Source: Vampirovibrionales bacterium (GTDB taxonomy: Bacteria; Cyanobacteriota; Vampirovibrionia; Vampirovibrionales; JAJTHC01). Taken from it: a stretch of DNA of 64,000 nt. The DNA lies in assembly GCA_044358835.1 (NCBI GenBank), contig JBIKNF010000009.1:6174-70173 (forward strand), read 5' to 3'. A model generated the notes under the pieces. That model had not been told where the DNA came from and did no database searches. It saw only the letters and a program-made list of their open reading frames with translations. Within the stretch, counting starts at the first letter, position 1, and every line of letters begins with the position of its first letter. Shown piece after piece: positions 1 through 15,302 of this stretch. The position numbers and the translations under genes are program-made.

Positions 1-155
1 AAGTCAATGCCTAAATCTTGGGTTTCGAGGCGGTTGCCAAACCAATTAAACCAGTTAAACCATTTCACGATGGGGGAACTCCTTGTTGGGTGGGTTAAGT
101 TAAACAAATAACCGCTTTTAGTTTAAGACAAGCAAACAAAATCACCAGTGGCCCG

Positions 156-485
156 TTACATACCCGGTAGTTTGAACCCTGGAATGTTGAGGCCTTTGGT
201 CAAAACGCCCATTTTGTCTTGGGTTTGCGTCATAATCGATTGTGTTAAGGCTTCAAGGGCTTCTACCACTAAAGCACCCGTTTGATCCCCTTGGGCTTCT
301 TTGGCGATGTCGACTTTCCAGTCTTCAAATTTCCCTGTACAAGAAACACTTACTTGTCCGTTCTTGGACTTCCCTTCAAAGCGTGTTGACGCCAATTCTT
401 CTTGAATTTTCATCATTTGGTCTTGCATTTTTTTGGCTTGACTCATCATTTTGGCCATATCAAACATCATTTTTAGGGTCTCCAT
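156..485 (-). CDS. ybaB: Nucleoid-associated protein YbaB/EbfC family
   Basis: 109 aa. Met/Lys/Gln-rich N-terminus, a central 'GxVxVxxxG' segment and a C-terminal 'IPGFKLPGM', all like E. coli YbaB. Confidence 0.8.
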   Translation of the reverse strand: METLKMMFDMAKMMSQAKKMQDQMMKIQEELASTRFEGKSKNGQVSVSCTGKFEDWKVDIAKEAQGDQTGALVVEALEALTQSIMTQTQDKMGVLTKGLNIPGFKLPGM

Positions 486-564
486 ATAAATTAAACACAG
501 GGTGTTATAGACTCATAACCTTAATTTTTATCATAACAGAAATAGGATTTTATGCTAGACTTAA

Positions 565-700
565 TTTTAAGAATGCGTAGAAAAAGTCTTTTTTGCCTTA
601 TCCCTTTTGCTTATGGAAGAAGGCTAGAAGGGGGGAAACACCAGCTATGACTGGACATCCAAGAACCCTCACCCCAACCCTTTTCCATAGGGAAAGGGAG
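565..700. repeat. Dispersed palindromic repeat family, locus A: reverse unit ~570..645 plus truncated forward unit 664..700, head-to-head
   Basis: The reverse complement of 605..645, 'ggtgtttccccccttctagccttcttccataagcaaaagg', matches 56287..56330. 664..700 'ccctcaccccaacccttttccatagggaaaggg' matches the same unit start in forward orientation. Confidence 0.65.
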
Positions 701-724
701 TAATCTCGGCACATTCTTGAATAC

Positions 725-1843
725 ATGATGAAAAAGGAAAGCCCTGTGACTTCATTTTGGAACAAAACGTGGAATACTCCTTTACGACTGGGCTGGATGC
801 TGAAATCGGCGTGGTTACAAACGGGGCGTCATGCGGATGTAATGTACCCGCTGTTTTTAATTCTGCTTTTAAGTGGCCTGCTGAGTCCCTCGCCTGCTCA
901 ACTCGCTTCAGGCGAAGGCGTGATTTTGCTGTGGCAAGGCTTATGTATGCTGACGACCCTAACGCTGATGAGTGGCTGGATGCAAGTGCTTCACGCGCGC
1001 ACGTGGTTGCTGATGTTAGAAGAAGCCCAAAAGCACCCCAAAGAACTGTTATTAGACCCTGCCCGCGTGCCGTTTGCTGATTTTAGCCAAGCGTCGTTAG
1101 AAGCCCCCCCAGGATGGATGAACCCGCTGCAACGCACAGAAGGGGATCAAAGCGCCGCGCAAGACGCCAGTAAGCTTGAGCGCCCAAGTGTGACCCGCCC
1201 GACCCTAACGCCCCTATTTCAAGGCATTGGCCGTTTTTGGGGACGCAGTTTCGCCATTAACGCCCTTCAAGGCATCGCCTTTGCGTTGGCGGTGATTCTG
1301 CCTTTTGTCTTGATTTACAAAACCTATGGCGTGCCTGATTTGTTCGCGCAAGCCACGCCTGAATCGCTTGAACGGTTGGCCAATCTCAGTTCGGCTCAAA
1401 TGCAAGCGATGCTTTTAAAATTGCCTGCCGCCCAAATTACGTTGATTAGCCAGTGGATGATGGGCCTGTTTATTTCCATGATTTGCGCCTTGTTGGTCTT
1501 TCTCGCCACCGCTTTGTGGTGGGTTACCATGCTGGTGTGTGATGCGTCGATTGGTCGAGCGTTGATGTTACAATGGCGATTTTTTAAGCACGATTACCTG
1601 CGAGCCGTCTTCATCGCCGCCGCTCAAGTCGGGATTTTGGGCTTTTTTGTGATGTATCCCTTGGCGCATTCAGGCAACGTGTGGGTGAATATGCTGTTGA
1701 ATGTGGGCTTGTTTTTTGGCTTTTTATTTTCCACGCACTTGGCCTTTATTTATGTGTATAGTGTCGTAAAACCTCCGTTTTTACCGCCCGCTCTTCGAGA
1801 AAGCATCCTTAAAAAAGCCTCGACGCTGGATGCCATTGCTTAA
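725..1843 (+). CDS. Hypothetical polytopic membrane protein
   Basis: 372-aa ORF with multiple hydrophobic segments and GC-rich codon usage. I recognise no family. Confidence 0.5.
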   Translation: MMKKESPVTSFWNKTWNTPLRLGWMLKSAWLQTGRHADVMYPLFLILLLSGLLSPSPAQLASGEGVILLWQGLCMLTTLTLMSGWMQVLHARTWLLMLEEAQKHPKELLLDPARVPFADFSQASLEAPPGWMNPLQRTEGDQSAAQDASKLERPSVTRPTLTPLFQGIGRFWGRSFAINALQGIAFALAVILPFVLIYKTYGVPDLFAQATPESLERLANLSSAQMQAMLLKLPAAQITLISQWMMGLFISMICALLVFLATALWWVTMLVCDASIGRALMLQWRFFKHDYLRAVFIAAAQVGILGFFVMYPLAHSGNVWVNMLLNVGLFFGFLFSTHLAFIYVYSVVKPPFLPPALRESILKKASTLDAIA

Positions 1844-1915
1844 TGAGGCATCATTATTTTTTGAGGCTATTTAATGCTGATATTCTTAACTTGTGTTTTC
1901 ATATAGGATTTCATC

Positions 1916-2818
1916 ATGGTCAGTTTTAACCCTTCTACGTCGTTACGTTCTGGTAGTTCTCTATCTAACTTATCCCATTTCGAAGCATTACAAAAAATAG
2001 CTAGAGAAGAGTTTGGTTTGCAAAGCGTTATTTTTAGAGATAACCTGCAAACCGCTCAAGAAGTCATCACGGTGTTAAGAGATTTAAAAGAACGTCGCTA
2101 TGATCTTTCGGGTATTTCTATTGTGGTTTCTGAAAAGGCACTTAAAGCAAAAAATCGCTGGGCATATAATATACCACATACTGCGCCTGATGAATGGATT
2201 AACGAACGTTTTCAAGCATTTAAGTATACACTTCCCCCTCATGAGCAATCTATTACAGATCCAATCAAGCAAAGAAAAATACTGGAAAATCCTTCTATAG
2301 AGGGATGGACTGACTATACTAGAAAAGGTTCTAAACAGAGGCCTTCAATCACACTTGATCCACTCCATAACTATTCTTCAGAGCAAATACATGAGATAAT
2401 ATATCATGAACTAGGGCATGCTTTACACTATAAGCGCTTGGCTCCATATATTGACAAGGCTCCTATGAACATGAACAACATCAAAGGTAAAGGGAAAAGC
2501 AAATTCGAGCTTATAAAATGGGTGAACTATGAAGCGTTTAAAAAGCTGTATGCGGCATTAGGTTTTCTTGATAATGGTGTTCCAACGAAACTCCCCAAGA
2601 AACTTATTGCAAGAAGGTTAACACCTTATGGGTGTGTAAATGTAATGGAGTTTGTGGCGGTGTATTTTCAAGAAGCCATGTCACAGTCTTCTTCTAAACC
2701 CACTGAGGCTTATCCGTTTTATAAGAAAGTAATGCATGTGTTTGAATCGTTTCGGTTAAAGTGGATATACATGAAGTTAAAAGGTCCTGAAATTCGTCCG
2801 AGGCCTTCAAAACCATGA
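1916..2818 (+). CDS. Hypothetical HExxH zinc-metallopeptidase-like protein, AT-rich
   Basis: 300 aa. Contains 'IIYHELGHALHY', a HELGH signature reminiscent of M78/ImmA-IrrE zincins. GC is ~38% against ~52% in the neighbours. An 'aggat' RBS lies upstream. Its stop overlaps the next gene's start (ATGA). Confidence 0.55.
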   Translation: MVSFNPSTSLRSGSSLSNLSHFEALQKIAREEFGLQSVIFRDNLQTAQEVITVLRDLKERRYDLSGISIVVSEKALKAKNRWAYNIPHTAPDEWINERFQAFKYTLPPHEQSITDPIKQRKILENPSIEGWTDYTRKGSKQRPSITLDPLHNYSSEQIHEIIYHELGHALHYKRLAPYIDKAPMNMNNIKGKGKSKFELIKWVNYEAFKKLYAALGFLDNGVPTKLPKKLIARRLTPYGCVNVMEFVAVYFQEAMSQSSSKPTEAYPFYKKVMHVFESFRLKWIYMKLKGPEIRPRPSKP

Positions 2819-3642
2819 ACTTAAAACAACGTAAAGCCCAGCTCGATGCCTTGGTGGCGACCTATCATCACCCTGATTTTGTGCGAGACGACCCCATGCA
2901 GTTTGCGGCGCCGTTTAAGCATGATCTTGCTCGATGTGAAGCCAACGCCTTGTTGTCTGCCTTATTGAGCTACGGCAGGCGAGAAGTCATCATCCGCAAG
3001 CTCACCGAATTATTCGAACGCCTAGAAGCCCCCGTCTACGACGTGCTTCAGGCGGAAAGTCTCGTGCCTGTGGAAAAACGCTTGGCAGGCTTCATCTACC
3101 GCTTTAATACGGGGGCGGATATTGTTCATTTACTGCGGTGGTGGCACGCCTTTTATGAAAGGCATCCGTCGCACTTGGCGTGTTTAGAAAGTTTGCCCCA
3201 AACGCAACACGGCGTGACCCGTGACACCCTCAAACCCGTGATGACCGCTTGGCTCGATGCGTGGTTGCCTCCTGATTTTTTAGCAGGGGGCTATAGTTAT
3301 GGCACACGATACTTGGTGCCTCATCCAGCTACAGGCGGAGCCTGCAAACGTCTGCACATGGCGTTACGCTGGCTGTGCCGAGATGATGCGTTTTTAGGCG
3401 AAAACGCGGTTGACTTTGGCTTGTGGACGCACGTGATTCCACCCCATGCCTTGCTCATGCCCATGGATACCCATGTGGGGCGGTTGTCTCGGCAGTGGGG
3501 GTTGCTCAAGCGAAACAGTACGGATTGGAAGGCTGCGGAAGAACTCACGGCACGACTGGCTCGCTTTAACCAGGGGGATCCGTGTCGTTACGACTTTGCA
3601 TTTTTGGGTTATGGCGTCGATGAGGTGCGGGGTCGACTATAG
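2815..3642 (+). CDS. Conserved hypothetical protein, possibly DUF2400/TIGR02757-like, with an HhH-GPD-like 'PxDTHVxR' motif
   Basis: 275 aa, GC-rich. The motif 'LLMPMDTHVGRLSRQWGL' resembles the catalytic region of EndoIII/MutY/AlkA-type glycosylases. The family name is from memory, not from a search. Confidence 0.5.
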   Translation: MNLKQRKAQLDALVATYHHPDFVRDDPMQFAAPFKHDLARCEANALLSALLSYGRREVIIRKLTELFERLEAPVYDVLQAESLVPVEKRLAGFIYRFNTGADIVHLLRWWHAFYERHPSHLACLESLPQTQHGVTRDTLKPVMTAWLDAWLPPDFLAGGYSYGTRYLVPHPATGGACKRLHMALRWLCRDDAFLGENAVDFGLWTHVIPPHALLMPMDTHVGRLSRQWGLLKRNSTDWKAAEELTARLARFNQGDPCRYDFAFLGYGVDEVRGRL

Positions 3643-3667
3643 CCGCCTTTAGAGCTTCCTGTTCAGG

Positions 3668-3756
3668 GTCTATACTTTGTCGCTACGATTATTTTGTTCC
3701 GTTATGTACGTCTATGTACACGCCCTCACAAAATAATCTAGGCTCCTCGTCTAGCC
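3668..3756. repeat. Left arm of a ~90-bp imperfect inverted repeat flanking hicB
   Basis: The reverse complement of 4300..4395 aligns to 3668..3756 at ~85% identity with one 6-7-nt indel. Shared blocks include 'gtctat', 'ttgtcgctacgatt' and 'tacacgccctcacaaaa.aatctaggctcct'. Confidence 0.75.
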
Positions 3757-3796
3757 ACCTGTACAGAAAGCTCTAAAAAACGGCTATATGAAGCCA

Positions 3797-4231
3797 TTAG
3801 ATCCACACATCTTTCGTGTTGTTGAGAAAAAGGGCATCCCCTTTACGACGTTGCGGATTCGGTACAGTCTCAAATTGTAGGGCGATCAACCGTTCAATAA
3901 ACTCCCCTGCACTGATTTTCTGGGCTTTGGCTGCTTTTTTCAAAAAGTCTTTTACCTCAGGTCTTAGCTTGGTGTTGAAGGTTTCACGTCCTAAAGCGGG
4001 GCGTCCCACAGGTTTGGGTGTTGAAAGTTCGGCGACTTTGTTTTGAGCTAAATCTTCTAAGCAGTCATCCAACATTTCAGACAGCATTTCCATGGCGGAA
4101 TCTTTGCTCATGCCTGTGCCAATGGCGATGTCCCAAGTGGGGCAGTATGCGGTAAAGCAATTGTCTTCTTCGCTCCATTCAACACGAGCGTCTTCCATGA
4201 GTTGTTTTTTACTTAGGTTCACGATTGGCAT
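3797..4231 (-). CDS. hicB: HicB-family antitoxin: HicB N-domain plus C-terminal ribbon-helix-helix
   Basis: 144 aa. 'WSEEDNCFTAYCPTWDIAIGTGMSKDSAMEMLSEML' matches the HicB N-terminal fold signature (DGGYxAxxPDLPGC...G.T.EEA). The C-terminal 'GRPALGRETFNTKLRPEVKDFLKKAAKAQKISAGEFIERLI' is RHH/CopG-like. Confidence 0.65.
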   Translation of the reverse strand: MPIVNLSKKQLMEDARVEWSEEDNCFTAYCPTWDIAIGTGMSKDSAMEMLSEMLDDCLEDLAQNKVAELSTPKPVGRPALGRETFNTKLRPEVKDFLKKAAKAQKISAGEFIERLIALQFETVPNPQRRKGDALFLNNTKDVWI

Positions 4232-4299
4232 CTTTCATTTTTCTTAAAAACTGTCTCACATAAACATCCATAGTGTTCGTTAGATGAAACAGGCTATGA

Positions 4300-4395
4300 G
4301 GCTATTCTAGGAGCCTAGATTTTTTTGTGAGGGCGTGTAGTGAGACCTACATAACTAAACAAAAAAATCGTAGCGACAACGAAGAGACCATAGAC
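4300..4395. repeat. Right arm of the inverted repeat flanking hicB
   Basis: See the left arm. Lies in the hicA-hicB spacer and ends 5 nt before the hicA-like stop. Confidence 0.75.
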
Positions 4396-4399
4396 CGTT

Positions 4400-4576
4400 T
4401 TATATAACGGATACTATATAACTTGACGTTTGGAAGCCTTTACTGTGATGTATGGCAAAGGGCATCAGCAAAAGTCCGTCAATATCAATGACCTTATGGT
4501 GCTTGGTGCTGTGTGTAATGGAACAACCATAGGAGCGTACCAGTTTTTCAAAGGCTTTTTCATTGAGTGGACTCAT
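4400..4576 (-). CDS. hicA: Possible HicA-like mRNA-interferase toxin; start taken at the internal Met
   Basis: An 82-aa ORF that I truncate to 59 aa. 'KLVRSYGCSITHSTKHHKV...MPFAIHHSKG' loosely fits the HicA/YcfA pattern (GSHxxF...PxH). It lies immediately upstream of hicB on the same strand. Similarity is weak. Confidence 0.4.
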   Translation of the reverse strand: MSPLNEKAFEKLVRSYGCSITHSTKHHKVIDIDGLLLMPFAIHHSKGFQTSSYIVSVI

Positions 4577-4672
4577 CACATTTTTCAACCTGTCGTTCAA
4601 CACTTTTAGTATAATATAATGCGTACGATATGTCAATATCGTACGCACAAAATCCTTTTAATAGGCTTCGAC

Positions 4673-7600
4673 TTAAGCTAAGTCGCCTGTGGATTCCGCT
4701 GTAGAGAGGGCTTCAAGTGGAGCAATCGGTTGAGACTCCCCCGCGTCTTCAGCACCTTCCACATACTGCTTTTCCATGCCGTGACTGCGGGCAAAGGCTT
4801 CGGCGTCAAAATTTTCAGACACTGGCACATCGATTTGAATCTTACTGCGGAAAAATAGGCTGACCACATCGTTTTGAATCTGCCACATCAAACGCTGGAA
4901 CAATTCAAAGGCTTCACGCTTGTATTCCACCAAGGGATCCTTCTGCCCGTAGGCTCGCAAGCCAATGCCGTCGCGTAACATATCTAAATTATGGAGGTAG
5001 TCGACCCATCGGTTGTCAACCACCTGAAGCGTGATGTCTCGTTCCATTTGACGCAAGGGGTGCAAACGCTCAGCAATGGTGGCTTCGCTCAAGCCTTGGG
5101 CTTCCCATTCAGCGCGTTGAAGGGCGTCTTGCCCGCTGAGCTGAACACCGTGTTCTTGCTGAAGTTGTTGCATCAATTGCCCGATTTGTGTTTCTAAATC
5201 CACGTAAAGTTCCTGGGCTTTGGCTTGCAACAGGGCAATCAACTCACGAAACTCCTTGTTGTGCAGATCTTCCACACGAAGGACGGCTTGTAAATTGGGA
5301 ATCATTTCAACGGCGGATTGGTACACGTCTTGCAAGGCGCGTTGGGTGTCGGCGTCTTGCCCGCCAGCGACGAATTCAAGGGTCAGGGTGCTACTGACGC
5401 ATCGTTCCATGACTTTGTTGAGCATGTGAAGCATCGACTCTCGCAACCCATCCAGTTCTAGCACGCTTTTACGCTGACGATAAATCAACTTGCGCTGTTC
5501 GGTCAACACGTCGTCATACTGTAACACGTTTTTGCGGATGTCAAAGTGATAGGCTTCCACCTTTTTTTGAGCCACTTCAAGCGAAGAGCTCAGTAATTTG
5601 TCCGACAACGGAATACTTTCTTCAAAGTTCATGGCCGTCATCGCATTCATCACCATTTGAGACGGAAACAAACGCAATAAACTATCTTCTAGGGACAAGA
5701 AAAACTGCGTGGTGCCAGGGTCTCCCTGACGACCGGCGCGCCCGCGTAACTGGTTGTCAATACGGCGACTTTCATGGCGTTCACTGCCAATAATGTACAA
5801 GCCCCCTAAATCCAGCACGGCTTGACGCTCCGCATCCGTTATCGGTTGGCGTTCAGCGACTTTGGCCTTGAATTCCGCTTCGCTAAGGCTTTGCCAATCG
5901 ATGCCTTGGGCGTGGAGTTCGTCTTTGACCATGGCTTCGGGGTTTCCGCCTAGTAGAATATCCGTACCACGACCGGCCATATTGGTGGCAATGGTCACAG
6001 CGCCTAAACGCCCGGCTTGGGCGACAATGGACGCTTCTTGGGCGTGGGCTTTGGCATTTAACACGTGATGCGGTATACCCTTTCGAATTTGGTCAATCGC
6101 TACAATGCTACCTTCCATATTTTCAAGCCATTTGGCCGTTTCATAAGACGCCTGCAAGCTGGCTTTAAAAGGCTCAACAGTCGTTTGCCACGCTTCATAG
6201 GTAAGGGTTTCAATTTCAGCGAAAAGCGGGGTGAAGGCGGTAATGGCGTCCTGAAGCTTATGCTGGCTAAGCACTTCTAAAAAGCGCGCGGATTTGCCTT
6301 TAAAGTAGTTGATATGAGGCGTGGTTTCGCGAATGAGTTGCGACACATATTCAGATTGTTCAATAGTGGTGGTTCCCACCAACACGGGGCGCCCTTCATG
6401 GTGACGCATGGCAATAGATTCGGCGACTTTGAGGTATTTTATGGCTTCGCCTTTAAAAATTTGATCAGGTAAATCTTCACGTACATCTTTACGGTTGGTG
6501 GGAATGGCAGTGACTTCCAAGTTATAAATTTTGGAAAACTCACTTTCTTCGGTCATGGCTGTTCCCGTCATTCCTGAAAGTTTGGGGTACAAACGAAAGA
6601 GGTTTTGAAAGGTAATACTGGCAAGCGTTTGGGTTTCGTCTTGAATATCCACCTTTTCTTTGGCTTCAACGGCTTGATGCAACCCATCGCTCCAGCGACG
6701 CCCTTCCATCAGGCGACCCGTAAACTCATCCACAATCACGACTTGGTCATTTTGAACAACGTAGTCTACATCTCGCTTGTAGAGGTGCTTGGCTTTTAAG
6801 GCTGAAATTAAGTGATGCGCCAAGCTCAAGTTTTCGGTGAATAAGTCATCTAAACCCAATAAGTTAGCGGCTTGATCCAAGCCTTCATCGGTCAACACCA
6901 CGTTCTTGGTTTTGGCGTCTGAAGTAAAGTGTTTGTCTACTTCAAACAAGGGGGCTAGTTTGGCCATGGTAAAGTAGGTTTCAGCCGACTGTTCGAGCTT
7001 GCCGCTAATAATCAACGGCGTGCGGGCTTCATCAATCAAAATACTGTCGACTTCGTCAATCACCGCATAGTGAAAGGGACGCTGGGTCATGGCATCTAGG
7101 GTGTTGGCCATGTTGTCTTTTAAGTAATCAAAGCCAAACTCATTATTGGTGCCATACGTAATATCCGCGGCATACGCTTGTTTTTTGACAAAAGGGGGTT
7201 GAAAGCCCGTATTGCTTGAAAGTACACAATCGACGCTTAAGCCTAAAAACCGGTAGAGTTGCCCCATCCATTCGCTGTCTCGTTTAGCCAAGTAATCATT
7301 CACAGTCACCACATGGACGCCTTTTCCCGTAAGGGCATTGAGGTACACGGGCAAAGTAGCCACAAGCGTTTTTCCTTCTCCTGTGCGCATTTCAGCAATG
7401 TTGCCTTTGTGAAGCACATAACCGCCAATAATTTGAACGTCATAATGACGCATGCCCAACACACGCTTACTCGCTTCACGACACACCGCAAACGCTTCAG
7501 GCAACATGGTATCGAGCAATTCTTGTTCCGCTTTGTAATCTTCTTTAAGGTCGGCTTCTTTGGGGCGGTTGCGGAGTTCTTCTTGAAAGAAAGCGGTTTT

Positions 7601-10373: not shown

Positions 10374-11456
10374 TTACTTCAGCGGTTGGCAATAAGCAAT
10401 CAATTGTTTCACCACAGAAGGTAAAGTATCTTCATTACTCATTAAATGAGCATCAATAGGCGTTTTTAAGGTATTAAAAAGGAATAGGCTCACTAATAAA
10501 CTACTGAATTCTTTAGCTTTCTTTTCGTTTGTAGGGTCTTTAAATCCCAAGGTCGGTTGTTTTAACAAATAAGCACACACACTATTTATAATACCTTCCA
10601 TGGGGTAAGTACCCGCATTGACGCCAGCTTTTCGTTTTACCTGTTCTTCTACACTTAAGCCTGTTGCCATTTTAATTTGTTTGCTACCAATATATTGTTG
10701 GGCATGAAAAGTTTTGAAAAATCGAAGTACGCCTAGATCTATGTTTGGTAAAAAACCCAATGCGTGTTGACTCAACAAAGCACTATTTGAGATTTTGCCT
10801 CGTGTGGTTTTATACATTTCAGGCATATTCTTCAAATCAGTTAGACACGCTCCAAAAAGAGGCATTACATCACTTAGTTTCTTTCGTTCAGCAAAACTTA
10901 CAGCACCTATTTTTTTGACCCATTGGCCAATCGAATAGTTTTGCGTTTCTTGAATCTTTAAATCCTTTTTCATTGCCTTAAGAAGTATTTTGTAAAAATG
11001 TGTATTTAAGTGGGCAATGAGGCCTGTATTTGCCGTCATCCATAGATTGTAACGTACTTTTTCTGGTATTTCTAAACGTTGAATCAGTTGATCTAAACCA
11101 AAAGAAGCCGCCCATGTCAGAACTGCTGCTGCACGTTCAGCAAATTCAACGCTTGTTAATTTTTTAAATTCGTCTTCACTCAACTTGGCTTCGTTGCCGT
11201 ATTTTGAGACACTTTGTTGTAGTGCTAATAGATGTTTGCTTATGGCAAAGCCTCCTTCAACAGCGACCAATGGAGTCTTTTCCACCACCATTTCTATTGT
11301 TTCTAATGGCATAGGCACTTTTTTTATAACTGGAGATACTGCAACTGCACCAAAAGCAAAGCACCCTCGAATAAAGGTACGCCTAGAGATCATAAAAATT
11401 CCAATCCTTAACAGTGTTATATTTTTCGCTATGATGTTCGATGTATTTATGTTCAC
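10374..11456 (-). CDS. Hypothetical protein with twin-arginine (Tat) signal peptide, AT-rich
   Basis: 360 aa. N-terminal 'SRRTFIRGCFAFGAVAVS' fits the S/T-R-R-x-F-L-K Tat motif. AT-rich composition. No family recognised. Confidence 0.5.
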   Translation of the reverse strand: MNINTSNIIAKNITLLRIGIFMISRRTFIRGCFAFGAVAVSPVIKKVPMPLETIEMVVEKTPLVAVEGGFAISKHLLALQQSVSKYGNEAKLSEDEFKKLTSVEFAERAAAVLTWAASFGLDQLIQRLEIPEKVRYNLWMTANTGLIAHLNTHFYKILLKAMKKDLKIQETQNYSIGQWVKKIGAVSFAERKKLSDVMPLFGACLTDLKNMPEMYKTTRGKISNSALLSQHALGFLPNIDLGVLRFFKTFHAQQYIGSKQIKMATGLSVEEQVKRKAGVNAGTYPMEGIINSVCAYLLKQPTLGFKDPTNEKKAKEFSSLLVSLFLFNTLKTPIDAHLMSNEDTLPSVVKQLIAYCQPLK

Positions 11457-11598: not shown

Positions 11599-14500
11599 TT
11601 AATGAATTACAGTGCGATGCAAATGTTCATGCAAGTAATGCCCTGTCAAACTTTCCGCCACCGAAGCCACTTGCACAGGCGTGCCTTCCGCCAATACGCG
11701 ACCGCCCTTTTCACCCCCTTCAGGGCCTAAGTCAATCACCCAATCACTGGCCGCAATATAATCCAACTGGTGCTCAATGGTCAACACCGTATGCCCCTTT
11801 TCCACCAAGCGTTTTACCACATCAATAAACAAGTGTAAATCATGCCAATGCAACCCAATCGAAGGTTCATCAAACAAGTACAGCGTATGCCCAGAAGGCT
11901 TTCGCATCAAGTCGGTGGCCAGTTTTAAGCGCTGGGCTTCCCCCCCTGAAAGCAGCGGAGCCCCCTGCCCAAGCGCCAAGTACCCCAAGCCTACATCGCA
12001 CAACAATTGCAACTGTTGCCCCAAGGTGGGGTGACTATCAAAGATCTCAATGGCGGCTTCAATCGGTGTTTCTAGCAATTCGTAAATGTTCTTGCCTTTA
12101 TACCGCACGCGTAAAATTTCAGGCTTAAAACGCTTGCCGTCACACGTTTGGCAAAGCAGTTCAGCATCGGGCAACATCCCCACAGAAAGCGTGGTTTTCC
12201 CCGCCCCTTTACACGTTTCACAACGGCCGCCTTTGACATTAAAACTAAAGTGAGACGCGCTTAAGCCTTGGGCCTTGGCTTCAAGCGTGTTGGCATACAA
12301 ATTGCGAATGGCATCAAACATTCCTGTATAGGTGGCGGGGTTGCTCCGACTGGTACGACCAATGGGTGATTGATCCACCACCACGAGTTTGTCAATCTGT
12401 TCAATGCCTTCAATGGCTTTGACGCCTTTGGGCATCGTGAGGTTTAAGTCTTTAAGGGGAATATCCTTTTTTCGCCCGTAAGAACCCATTGTGGCTTGAA
12501 TGTACTGTTCCACATAGGGCAGTAAACAATCAAACAACAAGGTGCTTTTGCCTGAACCACTCATGCCCGTAATCGTCACCATTTTACCTAAGGGCAAGGT
12601 AATGTTCAGATTTTTCAAATTATGGTGGGTGCATCCCTTTAGGCGGACGGTTTTTTCAGGCTTGGGAAGCTTTTTAGTGGTGTTCATTTCAATGCGCCGA
12701 CGCCCCGCCAAGTAATCCCCAGTAACGGAATTCGCCTGCTGTTCAAGTTCACTTGCAAGACCCGCAAAAACGAGTTCCCCCCCGTGAATCCCCGCTCTAG
12801 GGCCAATATCCACCACATAATCGGCTTGACGAATAAGCTCTTCGTCATGTTCTACCACAAGCACGGTATTGCCCTTGTCTCGTAGTTCTTTTAGTGTGTG
12901 AATGAGCTGTTGATTGTTATGCGCATGCAAGCCAATGGAAGGTTCATCCAACACATACATGACGCCTGAAAGTCCACTACCGAGTTGGCTGGCTAAACGA
13001 ATCCGCTGGGCTTCACCCCCTGAAAGGGTTGAAGCACGACGCCCAAGCGTTAAATACGGCACGCCCACATTCTTCAAAAACTGCAAGCGCACCAATACTT
13101 CTTTTAAGGGGGTTTGGGCGATTAACGCTTCAGTTGCGGTTAGTTCAGGATCAAGCGCACTTAGGGCGTCATACGCTTGACTTAAACTCATCGCACTAAG
13201 CGCCTTCCACGTAAGCGTGTCGCCTAATCGCACGGCAAGAGAAAACGGCTTTAAGCGAAGCCCATCGCAATCGGGGCAATCGTCTTCTAAGGTAAATTGG
13301 CGAAAGTAGGCTTGACTGGTTAAACCGCCGGTATTGGCTTTTAAACGCAATAACGGCAAAATGCCTTCAAAGTTTTCAAAGAAGTTTTCCCAGTCATCGG
13401 GGCTGTCTTCATAGTTGATTTCTGCAATCGGGACGAAAGCCGAAGTCGCCTTTTCTTTGCCGTAAAAAAACAGATGCTTTTCAGCCTTGTTCCACGCCTT
13501 CCACGGTTTTGAAACAGGCAAGTGCAAGTACTTTTCAAAGGCCGTCAACACCCGCTTGTGCTTGCCCCATAACAAGTAGGCCAAAGCGGGCATGGCCCCG
13601 TCTTTCAGACTTAAAGACGGTTCTTTAATGAGGGTGCTTTCGTCAATGTGTAACTGATGCCCCGTGCCTTTACAGGTGACACACGCCCCGTACGGCGAAT
13701 TAAAGCTAAACAACCGAGGCGCCATTTCGCCAAAGTCCAAATCACATGCATGACACGCCATAAAGGTGGACATCAGCGCTTCTTTTTCTTTGTCGTGATG
13801 CGGTTCTTGACTCAAAACGCGCAAGTAGCCCCCTGAACGTTGAACGGCTTTACTGACGGCTTGTTCCAAGCGCAGGGAAGTGGCATCCTTTTGGTGACGC
13901 AGGACAATGCGATCCACCACGGCATCAATGTGATGCACCTTATAGCGTTCGAGCTTGAAATCGTCGGGCAACTCATCTAAATCCAACATTTCACCGTCCA
14001 CATAGGCACGGGCAAAGCCTTCTTTACGCAACTGTTCAAACAACGCGCCGTAATCTCCTTTGCGTCCTCGAATCAGCGGGCTTAAAATTTGAATGCGCGT
14101 GGCTTCGGGCAGTTTTTTGATGCGTTCTAGCATTTGGGCGAGTCGTTGTGGTTGCACGTTGCAACCACATTGGGGGCAGTAGGCACGGCCGGCTTTGGCA
14201 AATAGCACACGCAAGTAATCCATAATGTTGGTGACCGTGCCGACGGTGGAACGAGGCGAGTAGAGCGTGGTTTTTTGTTCAATAGCAATGGCAGGCGAAA
14301 GGCCTGTAAGTGTGCGAACGGGTGCCTTTTCTTGCTTGCCCATGAACTGCTGGGCGTAATCGCTTAGGGTGTTCATGTAGCGACGTTGGGCTTCGCTGTA
14401 AAGCGTGTCAAAGACGAGGCTACTTTTACCGCTGCCTGAAATGCCCGTAAACACCACGAGCTGGTGCTTGGGTATGTTTAGCGAAAAGCCTTTTAAATTG

Positions 14501-14607
14501 TGCGTTTGCACGTCTTCAAGGCAGATGTATCGCTGGGTGGTGGGGGGGGCATCGTGCAGGGCAGGCATGGGGGGTCTCTTGCGTTTGTGGGGAGAGTACC
14601 CTTCCAT
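11599..14607 (-). CDS. uvrA: Excinuclease ABC subunit A
   Basis: 1002 aa with two ABC ATPase modules (Walker A 'GISGSGKSSL', 'GMSGSGKSTL' and LSGGE signatures) and zinc-finger Cys clusters. An alternative start is at 14568 ('MPALHD'). Confidence 0.95.
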   Translation of the reverse strand: MEGYSPHKRKRPPMPALHDAPPTTQRYICLEDVQTHNLKGFSLNIPKHQLVVFTGISGSGKSSLVFDTLYSEAQRRYMNTLSDYAQQFMGKQEKAPVRTLTGLSPAIAIEQKTTLYSPRSTVGTVTNIMDYLRVLFAKAGRAYCPQCGCNVQPQRLAQMLERIKKLPEATRIQILSPLIRGRKGDYGALFEQLRKEGFARAYVDGEMLDLDELPDDFKLERYKVHHIDAVVDRIVLRHQKDATSLRLEQAVSKAVQRSGGYLRVLSQEPHHDKEKEALMSTFMACHACDLDFGEMAPRLFSFNSPYGACVTCKGTGHQLHIDESTLIKEPSLSLKDGAMPALAYLLWGKHKRVLTAFEKYLHLPVSKPWKAWNKAEKHLFFYGKEKATSAFVPIAEINYEDSPDDWENFFENFEGILPLLRLKANTGGLTSQAYFRQFTLEDDCPDCDGLRLKPFSLAVRLGDTLTWKALSAMSLSQAYDALSALDPELTATEALIAQTPLKEVLVRLQFLKNVGVPYLTLGRRASTLSGGEAQRIRLASQLGSGLSGVMYVLDEPSIGLHAHNNQQLIHTLKELRDKGNTVLVVEHDEELIRQADYVVDIGPRAGIHGGELVFAGLASELEQQANSVTGDYLAGRRRIEMNTTKKLPKPEKTVRLKGCTHHNLKNLNITLPLGKMVTITGMSGSGKSTLLFDCLLPYVEQYIQATMGSYGRKKDIPLKDLNLTMPKGVKAIEGIEQIDKLVVVDQSPIGRTSRSNPATYTGMFDAIRNLYANTLEAKAQGLSASHFSFNVKGGRCETCKGAGKTTLSVGMLPDAELLCQTCDGKRFKPEILRVRYKGKNIYELLETPIEAAIEIFDSHPTLGQQLQLLCDVGLGYLALGQGAPLLSGGEAQRLKLATDLMRKPSGHTLYLFDEPSIGLHWHDLHLFIDVVKRLVEKGHTVLTIEHQLDYIAASDWVIDLGPEGGEKGGRVLAEGTPVQVASVAESLTGHYLHEHLHRTVIH

Positions 14608-15302
14608 TATACACCAAACCGATTAAGCCATTGTTTTAGCCAGTTGCATATTTTACTTTCCATGCCATTACCCTTTTTATCTGATTCGAAGCTACTTTCT
14701 AATGTTTCTCTTCCCATTACAAAATCAACAAGGTGGTTCATTCTTTCCTCAGCACTTCCTTTGATGCCTTTATAAGGACTTTGTATCAGTTGTTCCAGTT
14801 CACTTAGGTTTATCTGTTCTACTTCTTCATTTGACAATGATTCTCTTAGAGCCGTTACATTAGCTTGCACAGATTTTCCTAAATTGCTTAAGCTATCTAG
14901 TAAATTATTATTTTGTAAAAAAGTTGTTAATTTATTTGGATCATCTGTATTTTCTGGGAAATAGATTACAGTCGAAGATGCATTTTGGAGACTTCCCCCC
15001 ATTTCACTAATATCCTTTAGTACATTAAAACATGCTTCTATACATCTCCTCTGTCCTTCAACTTCTAGAATATCAAATACAAAAGGAGACTTTTCTAGTC
15101 CCTCCAATAGATTTATTATTTCATCAGGAATGATTTCTGGAGGGTGTGCCTTTATTACTTCGCGCATAAATGCACCAGTCAAACGGCCGGAACGTTGATT
15201 CGCGTGTGGGCAAGGCACTGGGGCATGTGCCGTGTGGGAAGTGGCAGGGGTGCTTCTTAAAGCTATACTTTTGTTATGGGGGGGGGTTAGTGGGCTTAAC
15301 AT
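14607..15302 (-). CDS. Hypothetical protein, AT-rich, stop overlapping the uvrA start (TAATG)
   Basis: 231-aa ORF. The N-terminal region is Pro/His/Ala-rich, the rest is acidic and Leu-rich. A G9/C9 homopolymer lies at codons 6-8. The true start may be the internal 'MREVIKA'. Confidence 0.4.
   Translation of the reverse strand: MLSPLTPPHNKSIALRSTPATSHTAHAPVPCPHANQRSGRLTGAFMREVIKAHPPEIIPDEIINLLEGLEKSPFVFDILEVEGQRRCIEACFNVLKDISEMGGSLQNASSTVIYFPENTDDPNKLTTFLQNNNLLDSLSNLGKSVQANVTALRESLSNEEVEQINLSELEQLIQSPYKGIKGSAEERMNHLVDFVMGRETLESSFESDKKGNGMESKICNWLKQWLNRFGV

Follow-up and report, generated by a model that had tools for sequence, protein, structure and literature searches.

A polymorphic slot for an accessory, compositionally foreign HExxH metalloprotease-type gene in Vampirovibrionales

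The gene at 1916..2818 of a 64,000-nucleotide stretch (the window; contig JBIKNF010000009.1 of assembly GCA_044358835.1, positions 6,174 to 70,173) was analysed together with its neighbours. It encodes a protein with an HExxH motif (the HExxH protein) and overlaps a downstream gene of the DUF2400 family. The genome belongs to the Vampirovibrionales, an uncultured order of non-photosynthetic cyanobacterial relatives whose only studied member preys on algae. The analysis established that the HExxH gene is an accessory, compositionally foreign insertion in a resident coupled operon, that this insertion is old and polymorphic and not recent, and that the gene is not a functional partner of DUF2400. 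The locus is read as a polymorphic slot holding a gluzincin that would act as a conflict or effector-type metalloprotease, prey-directed or otherwise exported; this layered statement as a whole is placed just on the probable side. The features of the locus are given below.

725..1843, plus strand: TM373, resident upstream gene; multi-pass membrane protein of no Pfam or NCBIfam family
1844..1915, plus strand: 72-nucleotide (nt) leader of the HExxH gene, with the T-run ATTATTTTTTGAGG, and TATAGGATTTCATC ahead of the ATG; seen in filled loci only
1916..2818, plus strand: HExxH gene, ATG start, 300 amino acids (aa); accessory, AT-rich, stand-alone, predicted gluzincin-type metalloprotease; allele class A
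1916..2131, plus strand: conserved 5' module of the HExxH gene, codons 1-72; disordered Ser-rich N-terminus MVSFNPSTSLRSGSS and first helices and strands; recombination-homogenised
2132..2780, plus strand: hypervariable core; predicted substrate-side strands (residues 130-147), HExxH helix and Glu helix
2781..2818, plus strand: conserved 3' tail LKGPEIRPRPSKP, followed by the stop codon; includes the GAGG that precedes the DUF2400 start codon; identity back to 93-100% from 2797
2815..2818, plus strand: ATGA stop/start overlap of the HExxH gene and DUF2400, TGA (2816..2818) over ATG (2815..2817), reading CCATGAAC
2815..3642, plus strand: DUF2400 gene, ATG start, 275 aa; resident and conserved; DUF2400/TIGR02757 family

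The slot between TM373 and DUF2400

The two open reading frames (ORFs; 1916..2818 and 2815..3642, both on the plus strand) and the ATGA junction between them, as given by the initial annotation of this DNA, were confirmed. The GC contrast that it had reported was also recovered, the HExxH gene having a GC content of 0.380 against 0.543 for DUF2400, and the GC content at third codon positions (GC3) was 0.319 and 0.587, respectively. The 46 long ORFs of the window have a mean GC of 0.474 (standard deviation (sd) 0.037) and a mean GC3 of 0.485 (sd 0.070), and the HExxH gene lies about 2.5 sd below this mean GC. Only three of the 46 fall below a GC of 0.40, namely the HExxH gene, 10374..11456 and 14607..15302. 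The codon-usage and GC checks proposed along with that annotation also revealed the gene as deviant: its codon-usage distance from the other genes is 0.518, the second highest of the 46 (median 0.292), and the sliding profile showed a GC step at about 2700-2850. Low values (GC 0.36-0.38, GC3 0.24-0.32) are found in all the HExxH alleles.

The neighbourhoods of the close HExxH homologues were compared, and every readable one proved to be this same slot in Vampirovibrionales genomes. The gene order is YbaB (minus), TM373 (plus), HExxH (plus), DUF2400 (plus) and SecA (minus), sometimes with a small gene pair before SecA. The filled loci are L001-L005, L012 and L021-L025. For the empty state, GTDB species genomes were scanned with the DUF2400 protein and metagenomes were scanned with a DNA pattern of the 3' end of TM373, the latter giving one locus only (L020). 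Four related genomes were found to carry an empty slot (L008, L009, L010 and L020). In these the TM373 stop overlaps the DUF2400 start directly (TGATG, GTGA or TAATG), and the DUF2400 is 90-95% identical to the window copy; the amino-acid identity of TM373 is 76-94% across all the related loci. Since the empty loci couple TM373 directly to DUF2400, that pair is resident, and the extra element consists of the HExxH gene and its 72-nt leader. An assembly artefact was rejected, as the same alleles occur in independent assemblies from ENA, JGI, Logan and NCBI. One of the empty loci, L008 (JBEISK010000050.1), is deposited as 'Gammaproteobacteria bacterium'; its TM373 is 87% identical at the amino-acid level, its DUF2400 is 94% identical and its gene order is that of Vampirovibrionales, and the public record probably carries a binning or labelling mistake.

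The leader 1844..1915 is 98-100% identical to that of L001 and 94-100% to that of L002, while the adjoining TM373 is only 82-83% identical. It probably carries the predicted ribosome-binding site of the HExxH gene and possibly holds a predicted promoter of its own; the consensus scan for an own promoter or terminator of the gene gave nothing above the shuffled expectation, and the Rfam scan of window positions 1..5000 revealed no meaningful structured RNA.

The ATGA junction is found also in L001, L002, L003, L023 and L024, while the filled loci L012 and L021 have a spacer of 21-22 nt instead. Comparison of the junctions showed ATGAGGCTTTCA..CTCAAACAACG in the empty sites and CCGAGGCCTTCAAAACCATGAACTTAAAACAACG in the filled ones. 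The end of the HExxH ORF (RPSKP) is collinear with the first codons of DUF2400 in the empty sites (MRLS...), and a difference of 11 nt makes the new ATG. A 5-nt microhomology, GAGGC, is present on both sides of the junction and could equally mark deletions. The insertion of a mobile element (insertion sequence, miniature inverted-repeat transposable element or integron cassette) was rejected, since neither terminal inverted repeats nor structured sites were seen at the boundaries. An exact 11-nt repeat, GAGGCCTTCAA, was observed at 2338..2348 (the QRPS codons of a conserved GxxQ(K/R)P motif) and at 2800..2810 (the RPS codons of the tail); its chance expectation in the stretch is about 0.16, and it could be a trace of junction-forming recombination or chance.

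The filled and empty states interleave in the neighbour-joining trees of both flanking genes. The nearest flank relative of the window (L009) is empty, the most divergent lineage (L021) is filled, and the two flank trees are mutually discordant. Because the states interleave and the trees disagree, the gene was apparently gained or lost several times, with recombination across the locus as well. The initial annotation had suggested a recently acquired gene inserted into a resident one. The foreign composition and the insertion, here between two resident coupled genes, were upheld; the recent date was not, as L021 is filled, synonymous divergence (dS) between the allele classes is about 2 against 0.2-0.6 in the flanks, and all the alleles are equally AT-rich.

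Allele classes, exchange and selection

The HExxH gene diverges far more than its flanks. The flanking proteins are 82-95% identical between genomes (76% for TM373 of L021) and the HExxH proteins 36-51%. The sliding nucleotide identity is 80-100% through TM373, and the HExxH gene begins with some 200 nt that are for the most part 90-100% identical to L001 and L003. An abrupt drop follows, with values of 23-61% between about 2120 and 2750, and identity is again 93-100% at 2797, which places the breakpoints at about 2100 and about 2790. Many residues within 1-72 are invariant. At least five allele classes were distinguished.

Class A: the window and P0001
Class B: P0002 and P0003
Class C: P0004, P0005 and P0007
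Class D: P0006 and L012, with an inserted transmembrane segment
Class E: P0008 and P0009

Between the classes, the core has a saturated dS of about 2 and a nonsynonymous divergence (dN) of about 0.7, while the adjacent DUF2400 has a dS of 0.2-0.6. Owing to this difference, the classes are either much older than the genomes which carry them or imported from outside. The dN/dS of the HExxH gene is 0.5-1.3 (0.36-0.5 between classes), and that of DUF2400 across the related genomes is 0.09-0.12. All the alleles recovered are full length (271-345 aa) with the catalytic residues kept. As this holds in spite of saturated synonymous sites, and as the AlphaFold model is confident, ORF 1916..2818 is a real gene.

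The movement of an allele was seen within class A, where the HExxH genes of the window and L024 are 96-100% identical over most of their length. The proportion of synonymous differences (pS) between these two is 0.031 for the HExxH gene and 0.265 for DUF2400 (Fisher p 2e-11). The low pS beside a diverged DUF2400 means that the same allele sits on diverged backgrounds, which indicates a recent transfer by homologous recombination. The counts of nonsynonymous and synonymous differences (Nd:Sd) are 29:6 for the HExxH gene and 24:50 for DUF2400 (Fisher p 1e-6). Codons 73-155 of class A, among them those of the edge strands predicted ahead of the active-site helix, have 19 nonsynonymous and 2 synonymous changes. 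Constraint on the HExxH gene is strongly relaxed relative to its neighbours, as these substitution counts show, and positive selection is suggested without reaching significance. A diversity-generating retroelement was rejected on account of the indels and the saturated substitutions of all types over 650 nt; no search was made for a reverse transcriptase or a template repeat.

The predicted metalloprotease and its proposed role

The catalytic features of the HExxH protein are the following.

2405..2428, plus strand: active-site motif HExxHxxH (H164-E165-L-G-H168-A-L-H171), within YHELGHALHY (residues 163-172; HExxH codons 2405..2419); invariant in 14/14 sequences of alignment A2; predicted helix 155-178
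2627..2665, plus strand: third-ligand helix motif Y-G-C-V-N-V-M-E245-F-V-A-V-Y; E245 and F246 invariant; predicted helix 243-257

The zincin HExxH recognised in the initial annotation is well supported, H164-E-L-G-H168 being invariant in all the 14 sequences, which reach down to 19% identity. The invariant residues are H164, E165, H168, H171, E245, F246, Y285, G290 and P291, and the family consensus of the third-ligand motif is Y-A-x-x-x-P-x-E-F-V-A-E-x-F. The AlphaFold model is a single alpha/beta domain (predicted local distance difference test (pLDDT) 78.8, predicted template modelling score 0.80), in which the strands 37-40, 68-71, 130-137 and 140-147 come before the HExxH helix (155-178). 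Disorder is predicted for the first 13 residues (pLDDT <50 for 1-13 and >90 for 21-70). From the alignment and the model, the zinc ligands are predicted to be H164, H168 and E245 and the catalytic base E165. The protein is likely to be an active gluzincin because every catalytic residue survives the saturated divergence.

The Pfam check which had been proposed earlier assigned DUF2400 and placed the HExxH protein above no curated threshold; at E<=1 only SprT-like (E 0.17) and M57 (E 0.34) were matched. The NCBIfam, PHROGs and PADLOC scans of the HExxH protein gave no match, nor did PADLOC at E<=0.1 for three HExxH alleles, TM373 or DUF2400. Residues 1-130 contain no Pfam domain, and the conserved N-terminal module belongs to the zincin family alignment. 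Weak Foldseek matches were to anthrax edema factor (E 0.55-1.2). Botulinum neurotoxin type E (HELIHSLH), the lone match of the sequence profile in the PDB, was set aside as not significant (E=0.12). A transmembrane segment is present in the class D alleles (P0006 and L012) and in some distant relatives.

The relatives of the protein are few. The search of 5.8 billion proteins gave only nine sequence clusters of homologues at 36-92% identity, one of which is labelled as a Vampirovibrionales genome. The exhaustive profile search of 1.84 billion representatives gave 112 proteins at E<=1e-3. A few of them are full-length relatives from AT-rich genomes, namely P0010 (E ~1e-33), P0011 (4e-30) and P0012 (1e-22; 611 aa with a long N-terminal extension), and the remaining matches cover mainly the catalytic half. 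The motifs HE..H..[HDQ] and Y[AGS]...P.EFVAE are both present in 48 of 108 distant matches, and in 39 of these 48 the zincin domain lies within 80 residues of the C-terminus. Nineteen distant matches have at least 1000 aa, up to 7,334 aa, and several giant relatives contain ADP-ribosyltransferase exoenzyme domains. The loci of the nearest outgroup relatives have a GC content of 32-35%. P0011 (L006), the nearest outgroup homologue outside the slot, adjoins a Terminase_3 gene and a CHAP-domain gene on a contig of 35% GC. P0017 (L018), with 2,087 aa, has three ADP-ribosyltransferase stretches and a C-terminal zincin and is located among small unannotated ORFs and a helix-turn-helix (HTH) gene. 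Both contexts resemble phage or mobile-element DNA.

These findings are explained as follows. The HExxH gene is a single-copy accessory gene of a freshwater Vampirovibrionales lineage. Its fixed slot between TM373 and DUF2400 contains one of at least five deeply diverged allele classes or no such gene at all. Alleles are swapped between genomes by homologous recombination through the conserved flanks, the first ~70 codons and the 3' tail. In the proposed role, the protein would be an active metalloprotease in biological conflict. It would in the likelier version be an exported or prey-directed effector of a predatory lineage, and in the less likely one it would work inside the cell against phages or mobile elements and descend from the zincin domains found in phage polyvalent proteins. 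The allele classes may be maintained by frequency-dependent or diversifying selection that acts on the substrate-binding surface. The ATGA overlap would be a positional consequence of the insertion, in which the 3' end of the HExxH gene supplies the ribosome-binding region of DUF2400 and keeps DUF2400 expressed. A conflict role is favoured because of the presence/absence polymorphism, the ancient classes, the gene-specific spread, the weak constraint near the predicted substrate strands and the kinship with phage proteases. The prey-directed or exported version is favoured because the Vampirovibrionales include Vampirovibrio chlorellavorus, an obligate predator of algae that has been proposed to secrete hydrolytic effectors (PMC4451040).

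Several points weigh against this proposal. The junctions fit insertion or several deletions alike. The ratio of 2.6 over codons 73-155 is not significantly above 1 (p=0.14), and relaxed constraint alone could explain the elevated dN/dS. Foldseek gave no significant match for the protein model in the PDB or in BFVD, so the gluzincin assignment rests on motifs and profiles. The alignment of A2 with Escherichia coli MtfA by hhalign has a probability of only 34.7% (E 4e-4). The window allele is without a signal peptide or transmembrane helix and no secretion-system gene lies next to it. That these lake genomes, which come from the Lake Mendota series, belong to predators is an assumption based on the order in which they are classified.

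An intracellular conflict protein is doubtful as an explanation, though by no means negligible. The protein would then be a domesticated polyvalent-protein zincin, either a prophage-remnant 'moron' or a host defence or counter-defence protease, engaged in an arms race with phages. The kinship of the family is in accordance with this: distant relatives are C-terminal domains of giant ADP-ribosyltransferase proteins among small unannotated genes of phage or mobile-element type, relatives match PHROG 28013 'virion structural protein', P0011 is encoded beside a large terminase and a CHAP lysin, and the top BFVD matches, though weak, are phage peptidases and polyvalent-protein domains. The missing export signal of the window allele fits as well. 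The locus itself speaks otherwise, being a lone ORF outside any recognisable defence operon and without a PADLOC defence family match, and in none of the Vampirovibrionales loci do phage genes lie close to the slot; a tblastn search of 50,697 phage records likewise gave no match.

The other AT-rich ORFs of the window are relevant to a broader version of the effector proposal.

14607..15302, minus strand: AT-rich orphan ORF, 231 aa, GC 0.381, GC3 0.27; most deviant codon usage in the window
10374..11456, minus strand: third AT-rich ORF, 360 aa, GC 0.367, no family

The stop of 14607..15302 overlaps the start of uvrA (11599..14607, minus strand) in TAATG, and only three homologues were found among the 5.8 billion proteins. 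In L027 a gene other than uvrA comes after the homologue; there, identity is 92-100% over the upstream region and some 110 nt at the start of the coding sequence, followed by a fall to ~35%. P0121 shares only the leader MLSPLTPPxNKSIALRSTPATSHTAHAPVPCPHANQRSGRL with this ORF, while P0120 is 50% identical throughout. This repeats the anatomy of the HExxH slot and suggests that such slots are recurrent in this genome. The leader (MLSPLTPPHNKSIALRSTPATS, 15302..15237, minus strand) loosely resembles the N-terminus of the HExxH protein (MVSFNPSTSLRS, 1916..1960), both being rich in Ser, Thr and Pro, with no acidic residues and with ...S-h-(AL)RS; these are the sole such starts among the window ORFs of at least 100 aa. 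The likeness could reflect a shared export signal or coincidence. If the former, these would be polymorphic effector slots, each with an AT-rich gene upstream of a core gene, in which a nucleotide-conserved Ser/Thr/Pro leader serves both as the export signal and as the recombination handle for swapping effector bodies, and the HExxH protein would be one prey-directed protease of a reshuffled predation arsenal; this version is judged unlikely. To our knowledge, no such slot system has been described in the non-photosynthetic cyanobacterial relatives. The third AT-rich ORF has a twin-arginine-like motif, MISRRTFIRGCFAFGAVAVSP, if translated from an internal Met. It follows feoB; at that position L002 carries a different ORF, of 158 aa and in the opposite orientation, making this another variable slot.

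A near-neutral passenger, that is an old insertion of no important function drifting under weak constraint and AT-biased mutation, with the empty sites as ordinary losses and the allele classes as the outcome of neutral divergence and occasional recombination, is decidedly unlikely. Such a gene would show the dN/dS of 0.5-1.3 against 0.1 for the neighbours, the very low GC3 (0.24-0.32) of all alleles, the several losses and the non-significant excess of dN over dS. It would hardly be full length (271-345 aa) in every recovered allele or keep nine invariant residues, all the catalytic ones included, under saturated dS. The between-class dN/dS of 0.36-0.5 still indicates purifying selection, and the recent arrival of allele A on a background with ~8-fold higher synonymous divergence looks like a gene-specific sweep.

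A cytoplasmic regulator similar to MtfA, which acts on Mlc in E. coli, is highly improbable. Here the zincin would act on a transcription factor or some other protein of the cytoplasm, either trimming it or binding and titrating it, and the lack of an export signal would be expected. Both catalytic motifs are aligned with E. coli MtfA by hhalign, HExxH on HEVAH and the Glu helix on YAASDPAECFAVLSEYFF, at a probability of only 35%. Sub-threshold matches to Peptidase_M90 (MtfA) and M91 occur among the relatives (18.6 bits for P0014 and 17.0 for P0017 with PF06167, cutoff 26.2), and one relative is labelled MtfA by JGI, whereas the window protein has no M90 match at E<=1. Hypervariability and variable presence are also unexpected for a housekeeping regulator.

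The least probable explanation is a functional module of HExxH and DUF2400 (protease with substrate or partner, or toxin with immunity) held by translational coupling, as proposed in the initial annotation: the ATGA overlap is kept in five independent loci and every readable close homologue lies immediately upstream of DUF2400, against which DUF2400 exists without the HExxH gene in the four related genomes, an absence that the annotation had itself named as refuting the idea, stays 90-95% identical with a dN/dS of ~0.1 whichever allele or none is upstream, is separated by a spacer in L012 and L021, and occurs in Bacteroidota too. The recurrence of an HExxH partner beside DUF2400, which was to be checked across genomes, extends to all the readable close homologues and stops at the distant P0011, P0012 and P0016, which are located elsewhere. 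As DUF2400 does not co-vary, exists alone and is not always overlapped, and as the distant homologues never adjoin it, the module was rejected. An ATGA overlap together with a step in composition therefore does not show that two genes work as a pair, because coupling within an operon can pass to an accessory gene that has entered it.

The conflict reading, with a prey-directed or exported protease as its likelier version, makes the HExxH gene a concrete candidate, defined by its sequence, for a Vampirovibrionales conflict protein that evolves fast. The clear empty and filled states with at least five classes make the slot well suited to studying balancing or diversifying selection as it occurs naturally in lakes. 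Current understanding is not overturned by these findings.

Neighbouring genes and comparison with known systems

The initial annotation described the downstream gene as native and conserved, which agrees with its scores above both curated cutoffs and its 90-95% identity in related genomes. The DUF2400 protein matched Pfam PF09674 (E=7.6e-56, 190.1 bits, cutoff 25) and TIGR02757 (151 bits, cutoff 139.2), both over nearly the full length, and gave a faint, sub-threshold HhH-GPD match. In the literature on DUF2400/TIGR02757 only one incidental mention and no functional study was found. Just past the DUF2400 stop lies an imperfect inverted repeat, TAGAGCTTCCTGTTCAGG ... CCTGTACAGAAAGCTCTA, at ~3648-3778. 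The region between DUF2400 and secA (3643..4672) holds a pair of small ORFs, 3797..4231 and 4400..4648, both on the minus strand, which are possibly a toxin-antitoxin pair. The 144-aa protein has faint antitoxin-like matches only (TacA1, E 0.04) and the 82-aa protein is without a family. A similarly placed pair is present in L002, and at least the longer ORF in L021; in L001, L003 and L024 there are no small ORFs and DUF2400 directly abuts secA.

Among the known protease types, the zincin is the commonest domain of the polyvalent proteins of phages and conjugative elements and has been unified with lethal factor (Iyer et al. 2017, PMC5512222). Judged by its motifs, the HExxH family matches the zincin type described for them. 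Both have the HExxH helix followed by a second helix with a Glu ligand, and both are linked to conflict and evolve fast. The relatives of the window protein are N-terminal, internal and mostly C-terminal domains of proteins of 1,000-7,300 aa. The window protein, in contrast, is a stand-alone, chromosomal protein of 300 aa without fused effector domains or a phage or plasmid context, and no match to a curated zincin model was reported for it at E<=1. The family so defined (HExxHxxH ... YAxxxPxEFVAE) is an uncurated zincin family, represented both by stand-alone genes in bacteria and by protease domains within giant proteins of phages.

MtfA (M90) and anthrax lethal factor (M34) share with it HExxH plus Y-A-x-x-x-P-x-E-(F/C)-(F/V)-A. 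They differ in that the matches of the relatives are below the curated thresholds and the window protein has none, and in that the HExxH family has an extra invariant His (HExxHxxH) and its own N-terminal alpha/beta extension. The M78 (ImmA/IrrE) flavour attributed to the protein in the initial annotation did not hold up. An HE-x-G-H type motif and a small size are common to both, but the third-ligand motif of the window protein is of the EFVAE type, PF06114 is not matched at E<=1, and the neighbours are TM373 and DUF2400 in every locus, with no adjacent HTH/Xre repressor gene. M78/ImmA identity was accordingly rejected, the motifs and weak profile links being to MtfA (M90), lethal factor and phage polyvalent-protein zincins.

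With respect to the arrangement of the locus, polymorphic toxin and effector loci are alike in having a conserved 5' module and flanks, a divergent body, abrupt breakpoints and recombinational exchange of alleles. Unlike in these, all the HExxH alleles are one zincin domain and not different toxin folds, there is no co-varying immunity gene, DUF2400 being invariant whatever the allele, and recognised trafficking domains (Rhs, CdiA, PAAR, LXG and similar) are lacking. The replacement flexible genomic islands of aquatic prokaryotes are multi-gene clusters (Lopez-Perez et al. 2014, PMC4033161). They resemble the HExxH slot in their fixed site between core genes, the very different versions in close strains and the recombination of the flanks, while the HExxH slot is by comparison a protease 'islet' of a single gene and ~1 kb.

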